16,814 nt of DNA from contig CAVUZH010000006.1 in NCBI GenBank assembly GCA_963745835.1, positions 1 through 16,814 of the forward strand, read 5' to 3'. This document shows, one piece after another, positions 6,624 to 13,465 of the stretch. Both the position numbers and the translations under genes were made by a program. Positions within the stretch are counted from its first letter, which is position 1, and each line of letters opens with the position of its first letter. This stretch comes from an uncultured delta proteobacterium. GTDB lineage: Bacteria; Desulfobacterota; Binatia; UBA9968. The notes beneath the pieces were generated by a model that saw only the letters and a list, made by a program, of their open reading frames with translations, had not been told where the DNA came from and ran no database searches.

Positions 6624-7421
6624 ATGGCCGCGAAAATCAAACATCTAGCGATCATCAGCGACAACTACGCTTTGTTGAGCCGGTTCTATGAAGCGCTATT
6701 CGGCATGAAAACTTCAAAATCACCCCGGCCGGAAAGCGCCGTGGCGATCGGCGACGGTTATGTCGGCATGAACATCATTCCGCAGAAGCTGGGACGGCAG
6801 GCGGGCCTGGAGCATTTTGGATTGGAAGTCGAAGATGTCGAAAAAATAACGGGCCGCTTGCGCGAGAAGTATCCGTCCGTACAGCTGATCAAGAGACCGA
6901 CCAATCGCCCCTTCGCCGGCATCAGCACCCACGATCCGGAAGGTTATGTCTTCGACTTATCCCAGCAGAATATGACCAATCGGGGCGAAGTGTATGTTGA
7001 AGGCGAATGGAAGCAGGATCGGTATGTAAGCCACTTCGTCCTGCGCGCGCTTAATCCGGGCAATCTGGCGAAGTTCTATCGTGAGATCTATGACCTTCAC
7101 GAAATGGAGAAGCCAGCCGACGATCCCAACCATTATCTCAGCGACGGCCGGATGACGATGATCATCTCGCCCTGGGCGATCACCGACTTCGAAGGCGCCG
7201 GCATCGAGCCGCGACATATGGATCACCTGGGGTTCAGAGTTGAGGATGTCGAATCGTTCAAAAAGGATCTTCAGGAAATGGTCAAAAGAAACCCTGCCCT
7301 TGCGCCCAAACCCGGCGGCACCGAAGGCGATATCAGGCTCAAGCTGCTCGCCAAGTGCAAGCACGGACAGTTTCAGCTTGCCGATCCCGATGGCGTGCCC
7401 ATCGACGTGGCAGCGCGTTAA
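6624..7421 (+). CDS. Two-domain VOC (glyoxalase/extradiol dioxygenase-like) family protein
   Basis: Repeated VOC modules KHLAI..FYEALFG..EHFGLEVEDV..DPEG and SHFVL..FYREIY..DHLGFRVEDV..DPDG. It lies 12 bp downstream of the SBP gene, so probably the same operon. Confidence 0.9.
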   Translation: MAAKIKHLAIISDNYALLSRFYEALFGMKTSKSPRPESAVAIGDGYVGMNIIPQKLGRQAGLEHFGLEVEDVEKITGRLREKYPSVQLIKRPTNRPFAGISTHDPEGYVFDLSQQNMTNRGEVYVEGEWKQDRYVSHFVLRALNPGNLAKFYREIYDLHEMEKPADDPNHYLSDGRMTMIISPWAITDFEGAGIEPRHMDHLGFRVEDVESFKKDLQEMVKRNPALAPKPGGTEGDIRLKLLAKCKHGQFQLADPDGVPIDVAAR

Positions 7422-7461
7422 GCCACATAGGTAAGATCTCGGCGGGTATGGTGTCCCCCTG

Positions 7462-8415
7462 ATGGGAGTGGTTAACGATGACCGAGCTTACCCCGCTCCA
7501 CAGCTCCAGACGTTTGCTGGTCAATTCGAATTGCGTGACTGGAAACAGGCGCGTCGGATCGAAACGCCGAGCGGATCGATCGCATGGGAGTTGAACGGGG
7601 TACTGGTATCGTGTCAGTCCGCTGTGCTCACGCTTGCCGTTGGCAAGCCTGAGGGTGTCCTAGTGGCCGGTGGTGCGAGAAAGCTCCTTACGCCGGTCGA
7701 AGGGGAACTGCGCGTCGATACAACGACTTTTGCTCTGAAGTCCCACTTCGTTCCTGAGAAGCCTGATAGGGCCACGGGCTCTCTCGAGATACGTAAGCAC
7801 CGGCGTACGCTCGGGTTCAACTTGGAGCTTCGGCGAAACCGCCTCACGGCCACCGTGTTTGCCCGCACAAGCAAGGACGAACCCGTTGCGGCGCAGGTTT
7901 TCCTGTTCTATCGGATCGGTGAGAAGGCACCGCCACGCCGCGCACCAGAGAAGGCACCTTCTCCGATCACGCCGCCAAAGCCGAGTGCGCCGAACCCGGT
8001 GCCACCAGCGCCGGCTGAGAAATTAGCAACATCGCAAGCGAGCATTTCCAGTGTCCGACAGATTTCATCCAACGAACAGAGGTTGTCGGGACATTGGGTG
8101 TACCAGGAATTCTATTCCTCCGGGCGCGGCGAACTTCACATGATGCTCTTACGTAACGGGCACTGTGTGCGAACAAGCAACAGTGTAGCGACGTTAATAC
8201 TTCATGATAGCGCGGGTAATTGGACAGGCTTCATGGAGCGGGCTTCGGCCCTGGATCCGGGCGACCGTGGCAAGTGGCGATTCGACGGCCGGTTGCTCAC
8301 GCTGGAGATGGACGACGACAGCACCTACGAGTACACCGTAACGCTCTCGGGCACATCGATGACAACGCGCAACACGACAGGAGGCGCACAGCGGCTTTGG
8401 ACGAAAGAACGCTGA
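7462..8415 (+). CDS. Hypothetical two-domain protein with Pro-rich linker and C-terminal lipocalin-like beta domain
   Basis: 317-aa ORF with linker KAPPRRAPEKAPSPITPPKPSAPNPVPPAPAEK. The C-terminal LSGHW...GKWRFDGRLLTL...LWTK pattern is typical of lipocalin-like barrels. Start uncertain, as GGGAG at 7464 precedes an out-of-frame ATG at 7478. Confidence 0.65.
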   Translation: MGVVNDDRAYPAPQLQTFAGQFELRDWKQARRIETPSGSIAWELNGVLVSCQSAVLTLAVGKPEGVLVAGGARKLLTPVEGELRVDTTTFALKSHFVPEKPDRATGSLEIRKHRRTLGFNLELRRNRLTATVFARTSKDEPVAAQVFLFYRIGEKAPPRRAPEKAPSPITPPKPSAPNPVPPAPAEKLATSQASISSVRQISSNEQRLSGHWVYQEFYSSGRGELHMMLLRNGHCVRTSNSVATLILHDSAGNWTGFMERASALDPGDRGKWRFDGRLLTLEMDDDSTYEYTVTLSGTSMTTRNTTGGAQRLWTKER

Positions 8416-8431
8416 TGTGGCGAGATGAAAA

Positions 8432-8635
8432 TGCGCGGGCATCAACCGTCGCACATGAACCATCTGGGTTCAGAGTTGAAGATGTCGAATCATTTAAAAA
8501 AGACCTTCAAGCTTATTCAAGAAACGCGCGCTTGCGGCGCCAAAACCCGGCGGAAACCCAAGCCGATGTCAAGACTCAACTCCTCGCGAAGTGACACCAA
8601 CGCGAAGTCCAACTCACCGATCGACGTCTCCGCCG
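8432..8635 (+). pseudogene. Degenerate remnant of the 3' end of a VOC gene paralogous to 6624-7421
   Basis: GGGTTCAGAGTTGA is identical at 7230-7243 and 8466-8479. Both copies translate to GFRVEDVESFKKDLQ, and similarity continues through LLAK and ATCGACGT (7401 / 8620) with indels and a stop. Confidence 0.85.
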
Positions 8636-8650
8636 TTTTCGAAACATTAC

Positions 8651-8703
8651 GACGGGGCGGCCAGCAACGGCCCGCCCTAAAATGGCTCACTTAATAGTTA
8701 GGC
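8651..8703 (+). other. attC-like site 1 (right half only)
   Basis: Hairpin GGGCGGCC/GGCCCGCCC followed by GGCTCACTTAATA-GTTAGGC. The GTTRRRY core is at 8697-8703, 16 bp before the TIR start codon. No left-hand RYYYAAC is visible. Confidence 0.65.
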
Positions 8704-8719
8704 AGCTAGGACTCTCATT

Positions 8720-9694
8720 ATGGACCAACAATTGATCGAAGTACCTCTTGATGTTTTATTTTCGCTCTTGAATCTCGATCAACCGGATGAAAACCGGACG
8801 TTCTACGTAAATTTCCGCCCATGCATCGAGGATCAAGGGTTGGCGGACCGGTTATATGGAGCTGGATTTCCCGCAATTTCATTCACCGACCTACCGGAAT
8901 ATAGAGAAGCCGCAATTACGCTGACAGCCGAGATTAGACACCATGTTCCAACTGGTCCAAGTGTCCAGATCGGCGGCGTTGATTTACCCCTTGAAGGGGG
9001 TCTTACTGGCTTAAGCCACTACCTCCGATGGCGCAACTCCGAGACGTCGTCTGTCGAATGGGTCGTGCATTACCAGGTCGGAGGCGAAAATTACAAAGTA
9101 AGCCCGAACAATGGACGAGTTCCGATAGCGGAACTCTCAGGTGCGGCCCGAAAAGCAATTCGTAATCTGGACGGTCTAGCTACAGAAACCGCATATGATC
9201 GATTTGCGCGCCTTGTTTCCAAGGCAGCAAAACCGTCAGGAGGAATCCAGCTGATTCCTCGTAAACGCAAAGTCTTCATTTCGTACCGACAGCCAGACTT
9301 AGACGTTGCGGAAAGTGTATATGAGCGGTTCAATTCGTATGGTCACGGCGCACACTTCGCACCATACCTCGATCGGCACGACCTCAAGCTGGGTGATTTG
9401 CGTTCGCAATTAGAGACACGGATCCGAGAAGCGGATCTCTTTGTACCTCTTGTTACGGATCGTTATGCTCAAGAGGGCAGCATAAGCGCTGAGGAGCTTG
9501 GTTGGGCCCGAGCTGAAGGGAAGCATCGGAGAGAGCACTGCGGCTTTATTGCGCCGATCTATATCGGTAGTCCGAAGTCCGATGTGGCTCGTATGTTGAA
9601 TCACTTAGTCCGACTCCCGATCGTCGATCTGAAGGAGATCCGGTCGCAAGCAAAAAATGTCGAGGACTTTCTCCGCATGTGCGTTGTTCCATAA
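8720..9694 (+). CDS. TIR-domain protein (C-terminal TIR_2-like domain, unrecognised ~180-aa N-terminal domain)
   Basis: KVFISYRQPD...YLDRHDLKLGD...IREADLFVPLVTDRY..SISAEELGWA...FIAPIYI follows the bacterial TIR pattern, with Glu at the catalytic (xxEL) position. RBS AGGA. Confidence 0.88.
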   Translation: MDQQLIEVPLDVLFSLLNLDQPDENRTFYVNFRPCIEDQGLADRLYGAGFPAISFTDLPEYREAAITLTAEIRHHVPTGPSVQIGGVDLPLEGGLTGLSHYLRWRNSETSSVEWVVHYQVGGENYKVSPNNGRVPIAELSGAARKAIRNLDGLATETAYDRFARLVSKAAKPSGGIQLIPRKRKVFISYRQPDLDVAESVYERFNSYGHGAHFAPYLDRHDLKLGDLRSQLETRIREADLFVPLVTDRYAQEGSISAEELGWARAEGKHRREHCGFIAPIYIGSPKSDVARMLNHLVRLPIVDLKEIRSQAKNVEDFLRMCVVP

Positions 9695-9698
9695 GGCT

Positions 9699-9778
9699 GG
9701 CTAACAAGCGGGTGAAGCTGACTCGGACAATATTTGGATTGACCTCAGCAACATGCCCGTGCAGCTTACCCTTAGTGC
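9699..9778 (+). other. attC-like site 2 (degenerate right end)
   Basis: GGCTAAC-AAGC-GGGTGAAGCTG starts 4 bp after the TIR stop. It pairs with CAGCTTACCC (9762-9771) leaving an extrahelical G. The terminal spacer and GTTRRRY are reduced to TTAGTGC. Confidence 0.7.
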
Positions 9779-9803
9779 TTATATTAGTGCCTATACTAGT
9801 ACT
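9772..9803. repeat. 12-bp tandem direct repeats upstream of the TA operon
   Basis: TTAGTGCTTATA / TTAGTGCCTATA / CTAGTACT, overlapping a TATACT -10-like hexamer. Confidence 0.6.
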
Positions 9804-9881
9804 GGTCCCTTTGAATGAATAATTTTCGTTTATTCGCATTTTGCCCTTCCTGATGATAACCTCGCGGTCAAAGGTGATTCT

Positions 9882-10079
9882 ATGAGCACCCTTACGATCA
9901 CACTCTCTGATGACCGCCTTGCCAAGCTGCAAGAAATTGCCGATCGCTTTAACATAAAAGCGGAGGACTTGGCCCGAGTCAGCGTTGAGGAGCTACTGAC
10001 GCGGCCCGACGAGTCCTTCCAGCAGGCCGCCGACTACATCCTTCACAAAAACGCCGAACTCTATCGACGTCTCGCCTAG
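9882..10079 (+). CDS. Type II antitoxin, CopG/ribbon-helix-helix-like DNA-binding protein
   Basis: 65 aa with an N-terminal alternating strand (TLTITLSDD) followed by helices, and C-terminal KNAELYRRLA. Its stop overlaps the toxin start (TAGTG). Confidence 0.85.
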   Translation: MSTLTITLSDDRLAKLQEIADRFNIKAEDLARVSVEELLTRPDESFQQAADYILHKNAELYRRLA

Positions 10080-10465
10080 TGCGCTATCTAACATTAAGTG
10101 AAGCGTTGGAATTGCATCGCCGAGTTATCGGTCAGTCTGGGGGAGCTTTAGGAGTTCTCAATCTAGCCGCTTTGGAATCGTCGCTGACTCAACCGCGCAT
10201 GACGTTTGGGGGCACAGAGCTGTACCCATCGATTGTGGACAAGGCGGCCGTGCTTGGCTATTCGCTTATTCAGAACCATCCGTTCTTGGACGGCAACAAG
10301 CGCACCGGTCATGCAGCCATGGAGGTCTTTCTGCTTCTCAACCATTGTGAGATTCAGGCGTCAGTCGATGAACAGGAAAGAATTGTCTTGCAGGTGGCAT
10401 CCGGCAAAATGGATCGAGAAGCATTTACGCTTTGGCTTCGTGACCATGTTACAGCAGAATGCTGA
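10079..10465 (+). CDS. doc: Death-on-curing (Doc/Fic) family toxin
   Basis: 128 aa with NHPFLDGNKRTG Doc-type Fic motif, an N-terminal LELHRRVI and LYPSIVDKAA. Confidence 0.93.
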   Translation: MRYLTLSEALELHRRVIGQSGGALGVLNLAALESSLTQPRMTFGGTELYPSIVDKAAVLGYSLIQNHPFLDGNKRTGHAAMEVFLLLNHCEIQASVDEQERIVLQVASGKMDREAFTLWLRDHVTAEC

Positions 10466-10473
10466 AGGTCGGA

Positions 10474-10531
10474 GGCTAACCATTCGATTCGGACTGATCG
10501 CTAGAAGCGACAGCCGAGCGTTTCGTTTTGT
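10474..10531 (+). other. attC-like site 3 (degenerate)
   Basis: GGCTAAC-CATTCG begins 8 bp after the doc stop. Bulged hairpin TCGG-a-CTG-a-TCGC/GCGA-CAG-CCGA, ending in a degenerate GTTTTGT. Confidence 0.55.
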
Positions 10532-10544
10532 GTAAGGGAGAACG

Positions 10545-11310
10545 GTGGACGTAAACCGTTTACAGCATCTTTGGGCGGTTACCCGGCGACTTCCGTATGC
10601 GTTTCGGATTATGTCCGCTGGCTCGGTGATAATCCGAACATCGACTTAGAGCACAATGACCTCATTTCGGTTGTGGAAGCCGAGGATGTCGAATGTCTTG
10701 AAAAGCTGGAGTACCTTCTGTGTCGAGCTCGCGAGATCATCGGGCTGAGCGGAAAAGGACTTTAAAACTTCTTTCGTTTTCTCGACCGATCTTCACTCCC
10801 GCGATTCCGACAAGATCCACGACGTGCTAGCCGAGCCTCGTCGCGGTGAGCTCGGCGATAAGGTCCCACTCGATTCGAAAGCTCCCTCAATTCATTAATC
10901 ATGAGGGTCGGCGCCTTCCGGCGGCTGACTTCACCGCCGAGCGGGCCCGGCAAGAAGTTCGCCATCGAGCTCAAAACCATTCGAATGGAGAACAAGACCT
11001 CAGACCGGAAAATTGACGGGAAGTGCTATGATCCCATCTTGGTGGCGTGACATGTTCCGTAATAACACTAAGACAAAATACAGGACAAAATAGCAGGGCC
11101 TGGCGCAACTAGCGAATACCAAAAGACATCTGAGGTGCCATTTCGCCATGTTGGCACTCTACAATAGGAGAATGGGGCCTTCTACCTTTGACGGATACGC
11201 AGGACTATCACGACGAACTGCGCCTAATTCTGAGAAAATATCCAGAACTCGACTACATCTTCTTCAAGACTATTTCGGCGAAGTGGTGGTGTGCCCTGAA
11301 TTGTCCAGAC
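10545..11310 (+). pseudogene. Multiply frameshifted PD-(D/E)XK nuclease-like gene remnant
   Basis: RBS GGGAG and GTG at 10545. Stitched frames give VDVNRLQHL/LGGYPAT...EIIGLSG/...DKIHDVLAE/...QFINHEGRRLPAADFTAERA/GKKFAIELKTIRME.../YHDELRLILRKYPELDYIFF, with an E...D...ExK arrangement. Confidence 0.5.
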
Positions 11311-11381
11311 AATCGGCTTAACGCGGATGCTCGGCAAACTGTGTGTGCTCCGCACCAGCACATATTAGCCGTTCGTTAGAC
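11303..11381 (+). other. attC-like site 4
   Basis: GTCCA(G)AC-AAT-CGGCT(T)AA ... inner hairpin TGTGCT/AGCACA ... TTAGCCG-TTC-GTTAGAC. The GTTRRRY core is at 11375-11381 and the extra base is in the left arm, as expected for + orientation. Confidence 0.7.
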
Positions 11382-12108
11382 GGCGCTCGTACGGAACGGC
11401 AATGCAAGTGTTTCGACTTCGCTGCGCAACTTCTCAATCTTTGCCAACTCACGTCCAGTTTAGAGAAAGATTCAGAAAGATTTGGGATCAGGCTGAGCTT
11501 GCCCGATTCGACTCTTAGGTCCTTGACACCTTCTGGTAATTTTTCTTAACAAGCGGGCTCAAAAGCATTGAGCGGCTTGAGAACATCCGAAGGAGATCTT
11601 TTTGATCCGCATCGGTTACGCTTGCATCAACACTAAGCTGCCCTCCCCCAATCGCACCTGCCGGCTAAAGAACGCAACATCCGATAAGATTCTGGAGCTG
11701 GCGTCAGCCAATGTCGAAGCATTGCAGCCGATCTTGGAATGGAATGCAGCGCGGCATTGAGCTCTTCCGCATCATGTCGGATCTGATCCCATTGGCTCGC
11801 TTTCGGATTAATTCGGTCCCATGGTTCCGGATCCTTAAGCCGCAATTGCGCGGCTATAGGTTATTCGTAAGAATTCTCCGGGGATAAGTCATCGGCCAGC
11901 CCTCATAGTTACCACAATCTTGTTTGCTGCAATTAAAACGTGCGCTGTCCTGCTTCCTACAAATCGCTCCGTTTGCTTTAAGCCAGCGGACATCTCTCAT
12001 TTTACGCTCTCCCCATTGTCGTGCGTCCGCCAACCGCATTAATACATGCTAGCGGTCCGAATTGGAATGTGCGGAAATAGAGTCCGCCTCGCGAATTGCC
12101 ATTCCCAT
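11382..12108 (-). pseudogene. Probable decayed minus-strand gene of unknown function
   Basis: GGGAG plus ATG at 12108 is in frame, through one TAG, with ORF fragment 11854-12039. Further fragments follow (11633-11845 and a KIEKLRSEVETLALP-like segment near 11390-11440). No family recognised. Confidence 0.3.
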
Positions 12109-12116
12109 TTTCTCCC

Positions 12117-13465
12117 TGTAGTAGCGAAGTGAATCTGTCAGGGGTTAATGGCAACGTGATTATGTCAGGGTGGGAGGATGACAACCCTGACAATGCAAGA
12201 CGAGAAGCGACTAGAGATAATACAACGGGTGTTGCGCCGTGAGCTGACAGTGATGCAAGCCGCGCTGGTGATGGGAGTAAGCGAGCGGCAGTGTTACCGG
12301 ATCAAAGCACGGGTCGATAAGACCGGAGCCAAGGGAGTGGTTCATGGCAACCGCGGACGGCCTTGTAAACGCAAGACCAAGGAGAAGACCATTAGACAGG
12401 TCTTGGCACTAGCCCGAGGGAAATACCAAGGCTTCAACGATCACCATCTGACCGAGAAGCTCAAAGAACAAGAAAAGATCAAGCTCAGTCGAGAGAAAGT
12501 CCGGCGTGTTCTTCGTGCAAACGGGATCGGTTCCCCCAAGAGGCGCCGCGGGATCAAACACCGAAGCCGCAGAGAAAGACGGGCCAGTGAGGGGATGATG
12601 CTCCAGGTCGATGGCTCCCCGCACGACTGGCTCCAAGGACGAGGGTCGCGCCTTTGTCTGATCGGGGCCATCGACGATGCCACGAGCAAAGTCATGGGAG
12701 CCTTTTTTGCCCCGGCCGAGAGCTCCTGGGGTTACTTCCACCTGTTCTGCGAGATCTTCAAGCAGCATGGAGTGCCCCAGTCGATCTATACCGACTGTCA
12801 CTCGGTATTCTGGACCGACCGGGAACCGACGTTAGAGGAGCAGTTGATCAACAGAAAACCCACTACCGAGGTGGGCCGAGGGTTAGAAGAGCTGGGGGTG
12901 ACCTTGATCCTAGCCCATTCCCCTCAGGCCAAGGGAAGAATCGAGAGACTGTGGAACACTTTCCAGGATCGACTGGTCAGTGAGCTGCGGCTGGCCAAGG
13001 CCAAGACCGTGGAACAGGCAACCGTGGTCCTGAATCGTTATCTCATCGTTCATAACCGTAGATTCGCTGAGCCCGCTAAAGCAGAGCCGGCCTGGAGAAA
13101 ACTCAGTGCGCTTAAAATCGAAAGGGCTTTGTGTTTCAAACAACAGCGTACCGTGGCCAAGGACAACACCGTGACTTTCGAAGGTTCGGTCTTGCAGATC
13201 CCTAAGACCTCGCCCTTTCGCTCCTATGCCAACAAGAGAATCGATGTGCATGTGCTTCTCGATGGCGCGGTGGAGTTTTTCTACAACACCGAGAAAATCG
13301 CAACCTTCGATTCAAAAACAACGCACACAATTGGCCTATATCGAACGAACGGTACGAAGGTGGGGTTCCGCTATGGTCCGCTTTCTACGCTGGCGACTTT
13401 ACCTCAGGTGTCACCCTGACATTTTTACGTTGCTGTTAACATGACATATTGACGTTGCTACGACA
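12117..13465 (+). mobile_element. Complete insertion sequence, IS1202 family (formerly ISNCY), 1349 bp, with 17-bp target-site duplication
   Basis: Ends are TGT...ACA. The left end TGTAGTAGCGAAGTGAATCTGTCA matches the right-end reverse complement TGTCGTAGCAACGTCAATATGTCA. A second inner repeat GCAACGT-N4-ATGTCAGGGTG occurs at both ends. CATTCCCATTTTCTCCC flanks it at 12100-12116 and 13466-13482. Confidence 0.93.
12178..13419 (+). CDS. DDE transposase (IS1202/ISNCY type; HTH plus integrase core)
   Basis: N-terminal HTH (AALVMGVSERQCYRI) and HGNRGR. The DDE triad lies in QVDGSPHDW, IYTDCHS and SPQAKGRIER. RBS GGGAGG. Confidence 0.95.
   Translation: MTTLTMQDEKRLEIIQRVLRRELTVMQAALVMGVSERQCYRIKARVDKTGAKGVVHGNRGRPCKRKTKEKTIRQVLALARGKYQGFNDHHLTEKLKEQEKIKLSREKVRRVLRANGIGSPKRRRGIKHRSRRERRASEGMMLQVDGSPHDWLQGRGSRLCLIGAIDDATSKVMGAFFAPAESSWGYFHLFCEIFKQHGVPQSIYTDCHSVFWTDREPTLEEQLINRKPTTEVGRGLEELGVTLILAHSPQAKGRIERLWNTFQDRLVSELRLAKAKTVEQATVVLNRYLIVHNRRFAEPAKAEPAWRKLSALKIERALCFKQQRTVAKDNTVTFEGSVLQIPKTSPFRSYANKRIDVHVLLDGAVEFFYNTEKIATFDSKTTHTIGLYRTNGTKVGFRYGPLSTLATLPQVSP

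Follow-up and report, generated by a model that had tools for sequence, protein, structure and literature searches.

We analyzed a 16,814-nt stretch of DNA (hereafter the window) that is the entire contig C6 of the 7.28-Mb, 25-contig assembly of an uncultured Binatia bacterium (GCA_963745835.1, genome G000; 97% complete, 9% contaminated), and found in it a worn integron remnant made of an attI site, a TIR cassette, an antitoxin/doc cassette and a nuclease-like pseudogene. The array is probably the residue of a once complete reverse-orientation integron that lost its integrase gene, intI, and its cassette promoter (Pc). An earlier sequence-only reading had described a decaying, integrase-less array in which the attC sites and one cassette had eroded with the TIR and toxin-antitoxin (TA) genes intact; this description holds, but its view of the array as a headless cluster of attC sites does not. 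The following features all lie on the forward (+) strand:

8430–8622, + strand: degenerate duplicate of the 3' part of a glyoxalase-family gene (6624–7421), 75% identical to 7192–7357, with several indels.
8656–8703, + strand: site 1, attI of a reverse integron, 3' part only, with the crossover between G8697 and T8698.
8720–9694, + strand: cassette 1 gene, coding for an intact 324-aa protein with an N-terminal domain (residues 1–178) and a C-terminal TIR domain.
9699–9784, + strand: site 2, attC closing cassette 1 (22.9 bits, E = 1.6e-4 in the window).
9800–9881, + strand: cassette 2 leader, with a conserved extended -10-like element, TGn-TAAnCT.
9882–10079, + strand: cassette 2 gene 1, a 65-aa putative antitoxin that overlaps the doc start.
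10079–10465, + strand: cassette 2 gene 2, intact, a Doc-family toxin of a type II TA pair (TIGR01550).
10474–10531, + strand: site 3, attC closing cassette 2, with AAC and GTT triads kept and orthologous attCs in relatives.
10545–11312, + strand: cassette 3, a pseudogene with 8 frameshifts and 1 stop, from an unnamed family of 260-aa proteins that have a PD-(D/E)xK-like motif.
11303–11381, + strand: site 4, attC closing cassette 3 (9.5–12.2 bits, E = 0.13–0.68).

Four co-oriented attC-like elements at gene boundaries had been proposed; their positions and orientation stand, and they turn out to be three attCs and one attI. The element heading the array, site 1, shares 91% identity over 44 nt (8656–8699) with the sequence that follows an intact, co-oriented intI in a genome of the same genus (G002) and 90% over 39 nt with the one that follows the intI of G034, and both matching stretches end just before the first inserted DNA behind intI. 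The same attI type is preceded by an intact co-oriented intI in five relatives (G002, G034, G077, G086 and G089), and in relatives the cassettes are found on the strand of intI, downstream of it. Among 27 aligned copies of this attI from the family, 25 finish in the same GTT and nearly all diverge immediately afterward, which is the signature of a recombination point (of the two exceptions, one lacks the GTT and one is incomplete in the alignment). The start of the TIR cassette at the attI GTT is complementary to the R'' box of site 2 at six of seven positions, as expected of a cassette inserted at attI. Judged by sequence and position, site 1 is thus an attI docking site, and an attI with a GTT crossover heads the array as it would head a complete reverse integron. 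Because the head is an attI, the history of the array changes from that of a headless cluster to that of a beheaded reverse integron.

We considered whether the four elements could still form a headless CALIN (a group of attC sites that has no integron-integrase), produced by secondary-site insertion or by the splitting of a longer array. The three attCs are real, no intI lies nearby, and a secondary-site origin is among the routes listed for CALINs (PMC4889954). Site 1 itself speaks against this: it obtains no attC model score, its bottom strand lacks R''/R' and L''/L' pairing and any end-to-end fold, its ends stay unpaired on either strand, and it matches the family attI. We rejected site 1 as an attC on these grounds and give the headless cluster almost no credence.

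The loss of intI and Pc can be read at the left junction. Homology to the attI platform, the stretch behind intI, begins in the window at 8656 and is preceded by the glyoxalase remnant, which means that intI and the part with the promoter are missing. When compared with two family genomes, the glyoxalase match reaches 8622, and the remnant abuts attI. No upstream co-oriented intI, as would mark a reverse integron, is found at the locus: C6 has no match to TIGR02249, our model for intI, with 8.6 kb of contig upstream of the array, in agreement with the absence noted earlier for the window, and nothing in the whole assembly passes the TIGR02249 cut-off. An intI above this cut-off occurs in 16 of 61 sampled relatives' genomes. 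The Pc expected between intI and attI is absent from the window locus, and no sigma-70-type promoter or terminator was called on the + strand of 8400–11500. The intact glyoxalase gene and its degenerate duplicate are separated by a 317-aa orphan gene with a Pro-rich linker (7462–8415), which has no family match and is not flanked by attC.

The same locus holds different DNA in sister species. In G001, of the same genus and with a glyoxalase gene 95% identical, a near-complete Pc-attI platform that retains the upstream ~150 bp sits at the same glyoxalase–TctC locus, also without intI; it is followed by a 42.1-bit attC and by different cassettes, none of which is shared with the window array. 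One of the G001 cassette genes (L061, 918–2051, minus strand) encodes a 377-aa protein with an HNH-like N-terminus, as judged by eye, and no PADLOC match. G005 carries a third, unrelated gene at the locus, and the G004 contig stops short of it.

The 206-bp post-intI stretch of G002 matches 47 of 90 family genomes, several of which hold 3–5 matches. From the 30 best-per-genome platform loci we excluded six that fall short of the GTT core and five with less than 1.5 kb upstream. Of the 19 evaluable loci (1.5 kb upstream), four have a full or near-full intI (one being the query), three a fragment and 12 no trace; five of the 12 traceless platforms have a right-strand attC match downstream, and two have almost no downstream sequence. 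At E ≤ 0.5, platforms of relatives match 28 loci of G000, and ten of these have a same-strand attC within 1.5 kb downstream, against 0.087 expected. These attI-headed loci, of several attI sequence types, make up ten of the 16 attC-bearing loci of the genome (16 loci, mostly with a single match, derived from 29 genome-wide matches among 150 scored of 3092 candidates, plus site 2). Four of the ten have a 3' intI stub, five have none and one lies at a contig end; the four stubs are on contigs other than C6. This shows that ten of the 16 attC-bearing loci of G000 are beheaded integrons. Our search, mainly of open literature and main texts, turned up no publication describing a genome that holds many integrase-less arrays headed by attI.

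Several observations concern the platforms as such. Each type (L020:7765–7970; L025, L026, L012) has its own short motif just behind the intI stop and again just before the GTT, direct or inverted, around a -35-like hexamer; these motif pairs are possibly binding sites of IntI or of a regulator. The attI type of the window recurs in G000 at C18:534287–534440, in a platform truncated where the contig stops. In G002 and G007 (L073, L075), the DNA behind attI is no cassette; both genomes have one and the same element there, which includes a non-IntI tyrosine recombinase and a transposase-like gene, a hint that this attI is a target of another mobile element. An ISNCY-family element with 29-bp terminal inverted repeats lies at 12144–13440 in the window; C14 and C18 hold 99% identical copies, of which the C14 copy lies between an intI stub and its attI, and C9 holds a partial one.

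The attC sites were scored with a covariance model built on the aligned bottom strands of 20 attC sites of relatives, with no window sequence included. These sites came from 20 integron regions, picked from a heuristic attC scan, and candidates distant from intI or on the wrong strand were excluded by eye. In the model alignment 86.6% of cells are paired, and ten of 16 pairs have changed on both sides. Since chance-level matches elsewhere in the window reach 7–11 bits, sites 3 and 4 need evidence beyond the model score. The array holds at least two attCs on one strand within 4 kb, sites 2 and 4 scoring E < 1 with the model and site 3 being recognized by orthology. The R'' boxes of sites 2 and 3 begin 4 and 8 bp past the TIR and doc stop codons, in agreement with the sequence-only reading. 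Site 2, whose score rises clear of this background, keeps its R'' and L boxes, has a broken R' without GTT and adjoins a 12-bp tandem duplication.

For site 3 the model gives only 7.4 bits (E = 2.5) with the right arm misplaced, and we accept it as an attC because it is orthologous to attCs of 29–42 bits behind the same doc gene. Among 24 loci of doc homologues in the family, an attC match lies directly behind doc in four (29.1, 39.8, 42.5 and 12.1 bits), which are four of the five closest homologues. The orthologous attCs (G077, 29.1 bits; G010, 39.8; G019, 42.5) align base for base with site 3, and the DNA alignment of the doc loci continues through it at 81–88% identity; two more close doc loci retain only the left half of the attC. 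Relative to the consensus, site 3 has compensatory changes at 10491/10515 and 10495/10512 and one L-stem mismatch, at 10487. Site 4 has an intact L stem and R' and a destroyed R'' box, and its bottom strand folds end to end. A cassette 3 homologue from a Pseudomonadota metagenome-assembled genome (MAG; 56% identity) is a clean cassette with an intact 31.1-bit attC just past its stop at the single locus found, and the start of that MAG cassette resembles the R' box of site 3. Judging by the C-terminus of the closest homologue, P0091, the R'' box of site 4 was apparently lost through a short deletion where the gene ends. At position 11337, three of four sequencing runs have C instead of A, which would better pairing in the loop region of site 4.

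Since the AAC and GTT triads are the sole conserved bases of attC sites (PMC2727003), sites 2 and 4 have probably lost their function, and site 3 may still be alive. The strict heuristic scan recovered none of sites 1–4, as expected given their broken R boxes, and Rfam gave no match within 7000–13000. A heuristic candidate at 11544–11621 was dropped, having no model score and overlapping the pseudogene fragment that starts at 11587; this fragment (11587–11915) is the frameshifted 5' part of a gene that we take to be uvsE-like, and an intact paralogue lies at about C3:443400–444320. A weak model match at 2590–2687 (7.7 bits, complementary ends), distant from the array, is probably due to chance.

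The platforms could also have been loaded in trans, with intI lost once and early and cassettes captured later by IntI from elsewhere in the genome or from incoming DNA, in which case the integrase-less attI sites would be working landing pads rather than fossils. G000 and G001 have the same attI type at the same locus, both without intI and with no common cassette, and G005 has yet another gene there; the 12 of 19 family platforms that show no intI trace in 1.5 kb upstream, the genomes holding several platforms and the same-type platform at a G000 contig end fit as well. IntI/attI specificity is cognate (PMC2095811), and it is accepted that CALIN cassettes can be acted on in trans (PMC9668308). 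Against this, G000 and G001 have unlike left junctions, consistent with separate losses of intI that followed separate shuffling, the situation known from Xanthomonas (10.1101/2025.06.18.660453). All attCs are eroded, even that of the newest cassette, so nothing was added recently, and this argues that the array is inactive now. Contigs from all four independent runs (four studies) show the same array, with no cassette gain or loss and no joint that skips a cassette; one 3.9-kb independent contig spans 8391–12117 with 4 differing letters and no gap. We consider trans loading rather unlikely as the origin of this array, but a live alternative.

Turning to the cargo, the TIR_2 and Fic/Doc domains recognized earlier are present. 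The TIR domain of cassette 1 matches PF13676 (TIR_2) with 42 bits. The predicted structure of the protein has a predicted local distance difference test score (pLDDT) of 91, and residues 181–324 match TIR structures (best Z 15.9, root-mean-square deviation (rmsd) 2.7, 138 aligned residues). In an alignment of the cassette 1 protein with 34 long homologues (selected on length and score; 35 rows in all), G225 and E259 are the sole invariant positions. The latter lines up with the Glu that plant TIR domains conserve and that is catalytic in them; with the TIR fold and this Glu, the protein has the features of catalytic TIRs. Three near homologues share 39–82% identity, and a deep search returned 88 clusters at E ≤ 0.001, 41 of them at E ≤ 1e-10, which gives a family, as yet without a name, of about 40 clusters. 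An archaeal MAG includes one annotated homologue. Membership in Thoeris (ThsA + ThsB) was rejected: the ThsB/ThcB4 matches cover the TIR part only, with 35.4 bits against a cut-off of 220, and the cassette holds no ThsA-type or other effector gene.

The N-terminal domain gave no usable Atlas match. Folded alone without an alignment it is unreliable (pLDDT 49), and its best match (Z 5.0, rmsd 4.2, 104 aligned residues) indicates neither a known nor a new fold; a viral structure library matched the TIR-like part only. We find it moderately likely that the protein is an NAD+-cleaving abortive-infection or signaling protein with an N-terminal sensor, and hence with a putative role in defense. Homologue DNA was scarce: metagenome contigs yielded none by the single protein and one by the alignment, and genome contigs, viral contigs, plasmids and 300 other genomes of the phylum sample yielded none.

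Cassette 2 encodes a TA pair. Its second gene reaches 53.7 bits against the TIGR01550 cut-off of 38.65 and keeps the Fic motif intact, as expected of a Doc toxin. The 65-aa gene has no Pfam, NCBIfam or PADLOC match and is conserved together with doc in family genomes. On the branch to the window copy, the ratio of nonsynonymous to synonymous changes (pN/pS) is 0.03 for the putative antitoxin and 0.08 for doc, which indicates purifying selection on the TA genes along that branch. The -10-like element of the leader is kept in seven of seven aligned copies; the leader is probably the cassette's own promoter, and a strict sigma-70 scan made no call there.

Cassette 3 is a pseudogene, as had been proposed: it carries nine disruptive lesions, and the TIR and TA genes carry none. 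It is 87% identical to P0091 over 250 aligned residues. Its family has 114 homologues, with D130, E143 and K145 invariant in 43 of 43 rows; matches to Hjc are weak (6 of 43 members, best E = 0.0074) and no solved relative was found by sequence. Nuclease-like is a plausible but tentative label. No member was found in 89 other family genomes. Assembly error as the source of the frameshifts was rejected: the lesions recur in contigs of independent runs, and the 3.9-kb contig covers the region without a gap. One run has an extra 19-nt insertion in the pseudogene.

Several points weigh against the remnant as we read it. The attC model is our own and not that of IntegronFinder, and it places sites 3 and 4 within or close to the chance range; site 2 is absent from the genome-wide attC list at E ≤ 1. 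A former intI is deduced from the platform only, the window locus having no intI trace, and an intact cognate intI may sit in the assembly gap past the C18 platform. The selection signal of the TA genes spans the whole branch and may predate their arrival at the locus. For the cargo, no gene reaches the cut-off of a curated defense system, PADLOC included, and the sole TIR homologue with retrievable DNA (51% identity, 1.6-kb contig) has no attC. Neither of the conditions that would have refuted the earlier reading applies: site 2 scores with an attC model, and homologues of cassettes 2 and 3 are flanked by attC elsewhere, the TIR gene being the exception at its one homologue locus. With the Pc of the TIR gene also lost, the defense label given to the cargo claims more than these data support.

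The cargo might accordingly be no working defense at all, the TIR gene having been silent since Pc was lost and intact only as the last arrival, and the TA pair being purely selfish. Besides the absence of Pc and of a curated defense match, no sigma-70-type promoter was called on the strand of the array. On the other side, the attC of the TIR gene took several lesions and the gene's 975-bp frame none, the upstream host genes are co-directional with no terminator called, and TIR proteins encoded by a single gene have been proven to act against phages in E. coli (PMC11350192). We regard idle cargo as a real possibility, if a somewhat doubtful one.

Taking the array as the remnant of a complete reverse integron, its history probably ran as follows. 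An integron with intI, Pc, attI and cassettes on one strand would once have sat between the glyoxalase and TctC genes. With the cognate IntI available, circular cassettes would have entered at attI by attI × attC recombination, the standard integron mechanism giving the arrival order: the nuclease-like gene, then the TA pair and last the TIR gene. Deletion of intI and Pc then fused the last ~45 bp of attI to the glyoxalase remnant. The attCs eroded without turnover, site 2 losing its GTT and site 4 its AAC, so that none of the three cassettes would now be excised singly; by the triad rule, only attI × site 3, which would take TIR and TA jointly, keeps both triads. The TA pair, with its own promoter-like leader, would persist as an addiction module, the TIR gene would be expressed, if at all, through read-through from the upstream host genes, and the oldest cassette, lacking promoter or selection, would have decayed.

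CALINs, reverse integrons, and defense and TA cassettes have all been published, and the array is ordinary integron biology. It shares with CALINs two or more attCs in one orientation, a small number of cassettes, the lack of a nearby intI or intI pseudogene and cargo of unknown function (PMC4889954), and it works like a reverse integron that has frozen; it differs in being headed by an identified attI, the route here being intI loss. In the CALIN survey, 95% of CALINs have no intI or intI pseudogene nearby; that survey could not search for attI outside classes 1–3 and left the origin open among four routes (PMC4889954). The cassettes of relatives, downstream of intI on the same strand, resemble the reverse integrons of Treponema (PMC3607928), whereas the window locus lacks intI and Pc, and G000 has ten platforms of several attI types against one integron. 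The inactivated ilvD-linked integrons of Xanthomonas likewise have an ancestral platform at a fixed locus with different frozen cassettes between species, and intI is truncated or deleted in most lineages (10.1101/2025.06.18.660453); they occupy one main locus per genome, in contrast to the many loci and several attI types of G000.

TA cassettes and nuclease-domain cassettes are typical integron cargo (10.1101/2024.07.02.601686, 10.1101/2024.07.02.601719, PMC13108822), ThsB-like genes are known in cassettes (10.1101/2024.07.02.601719), and TA cassettes have their own promoters and stabilize arrays (PMC13108822). Unlike these, the window TIR protein carries an N-terminal domain that is unclassified, lacks a ThsA partner and matches none of the curated systems. 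With TIR-V and TIR-IX it shares a one-gene layout with a TIR domain and no partner gene in the cassette (PMC11350192); these are described as short and TIR-only, whereas the window protein has a 178-residue extra domain, the comparison being with their published description (PMC11350192).

A broader reading would have the chromosomes of this lineage carry networks of integrase-less attI pads, loaded and emptied in trans, and would make cassette 1 a single-gene TIR system against phages that is new and has a sensor domain not described before. We hold this to be rather improbable; if true, with ten pads in G000, most CALINs of this uncultured soil lineage would be pads left after intI deletion. 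The TIR cassette family is a reasonable candidate for anti-phage screens. In reverse integrons attI can be read behind intI, which makes the origin of CALINs traceable here; intI loss versus secondary-site insertion, and fossil versus trans-loaded arrays, thereby become directly testable.

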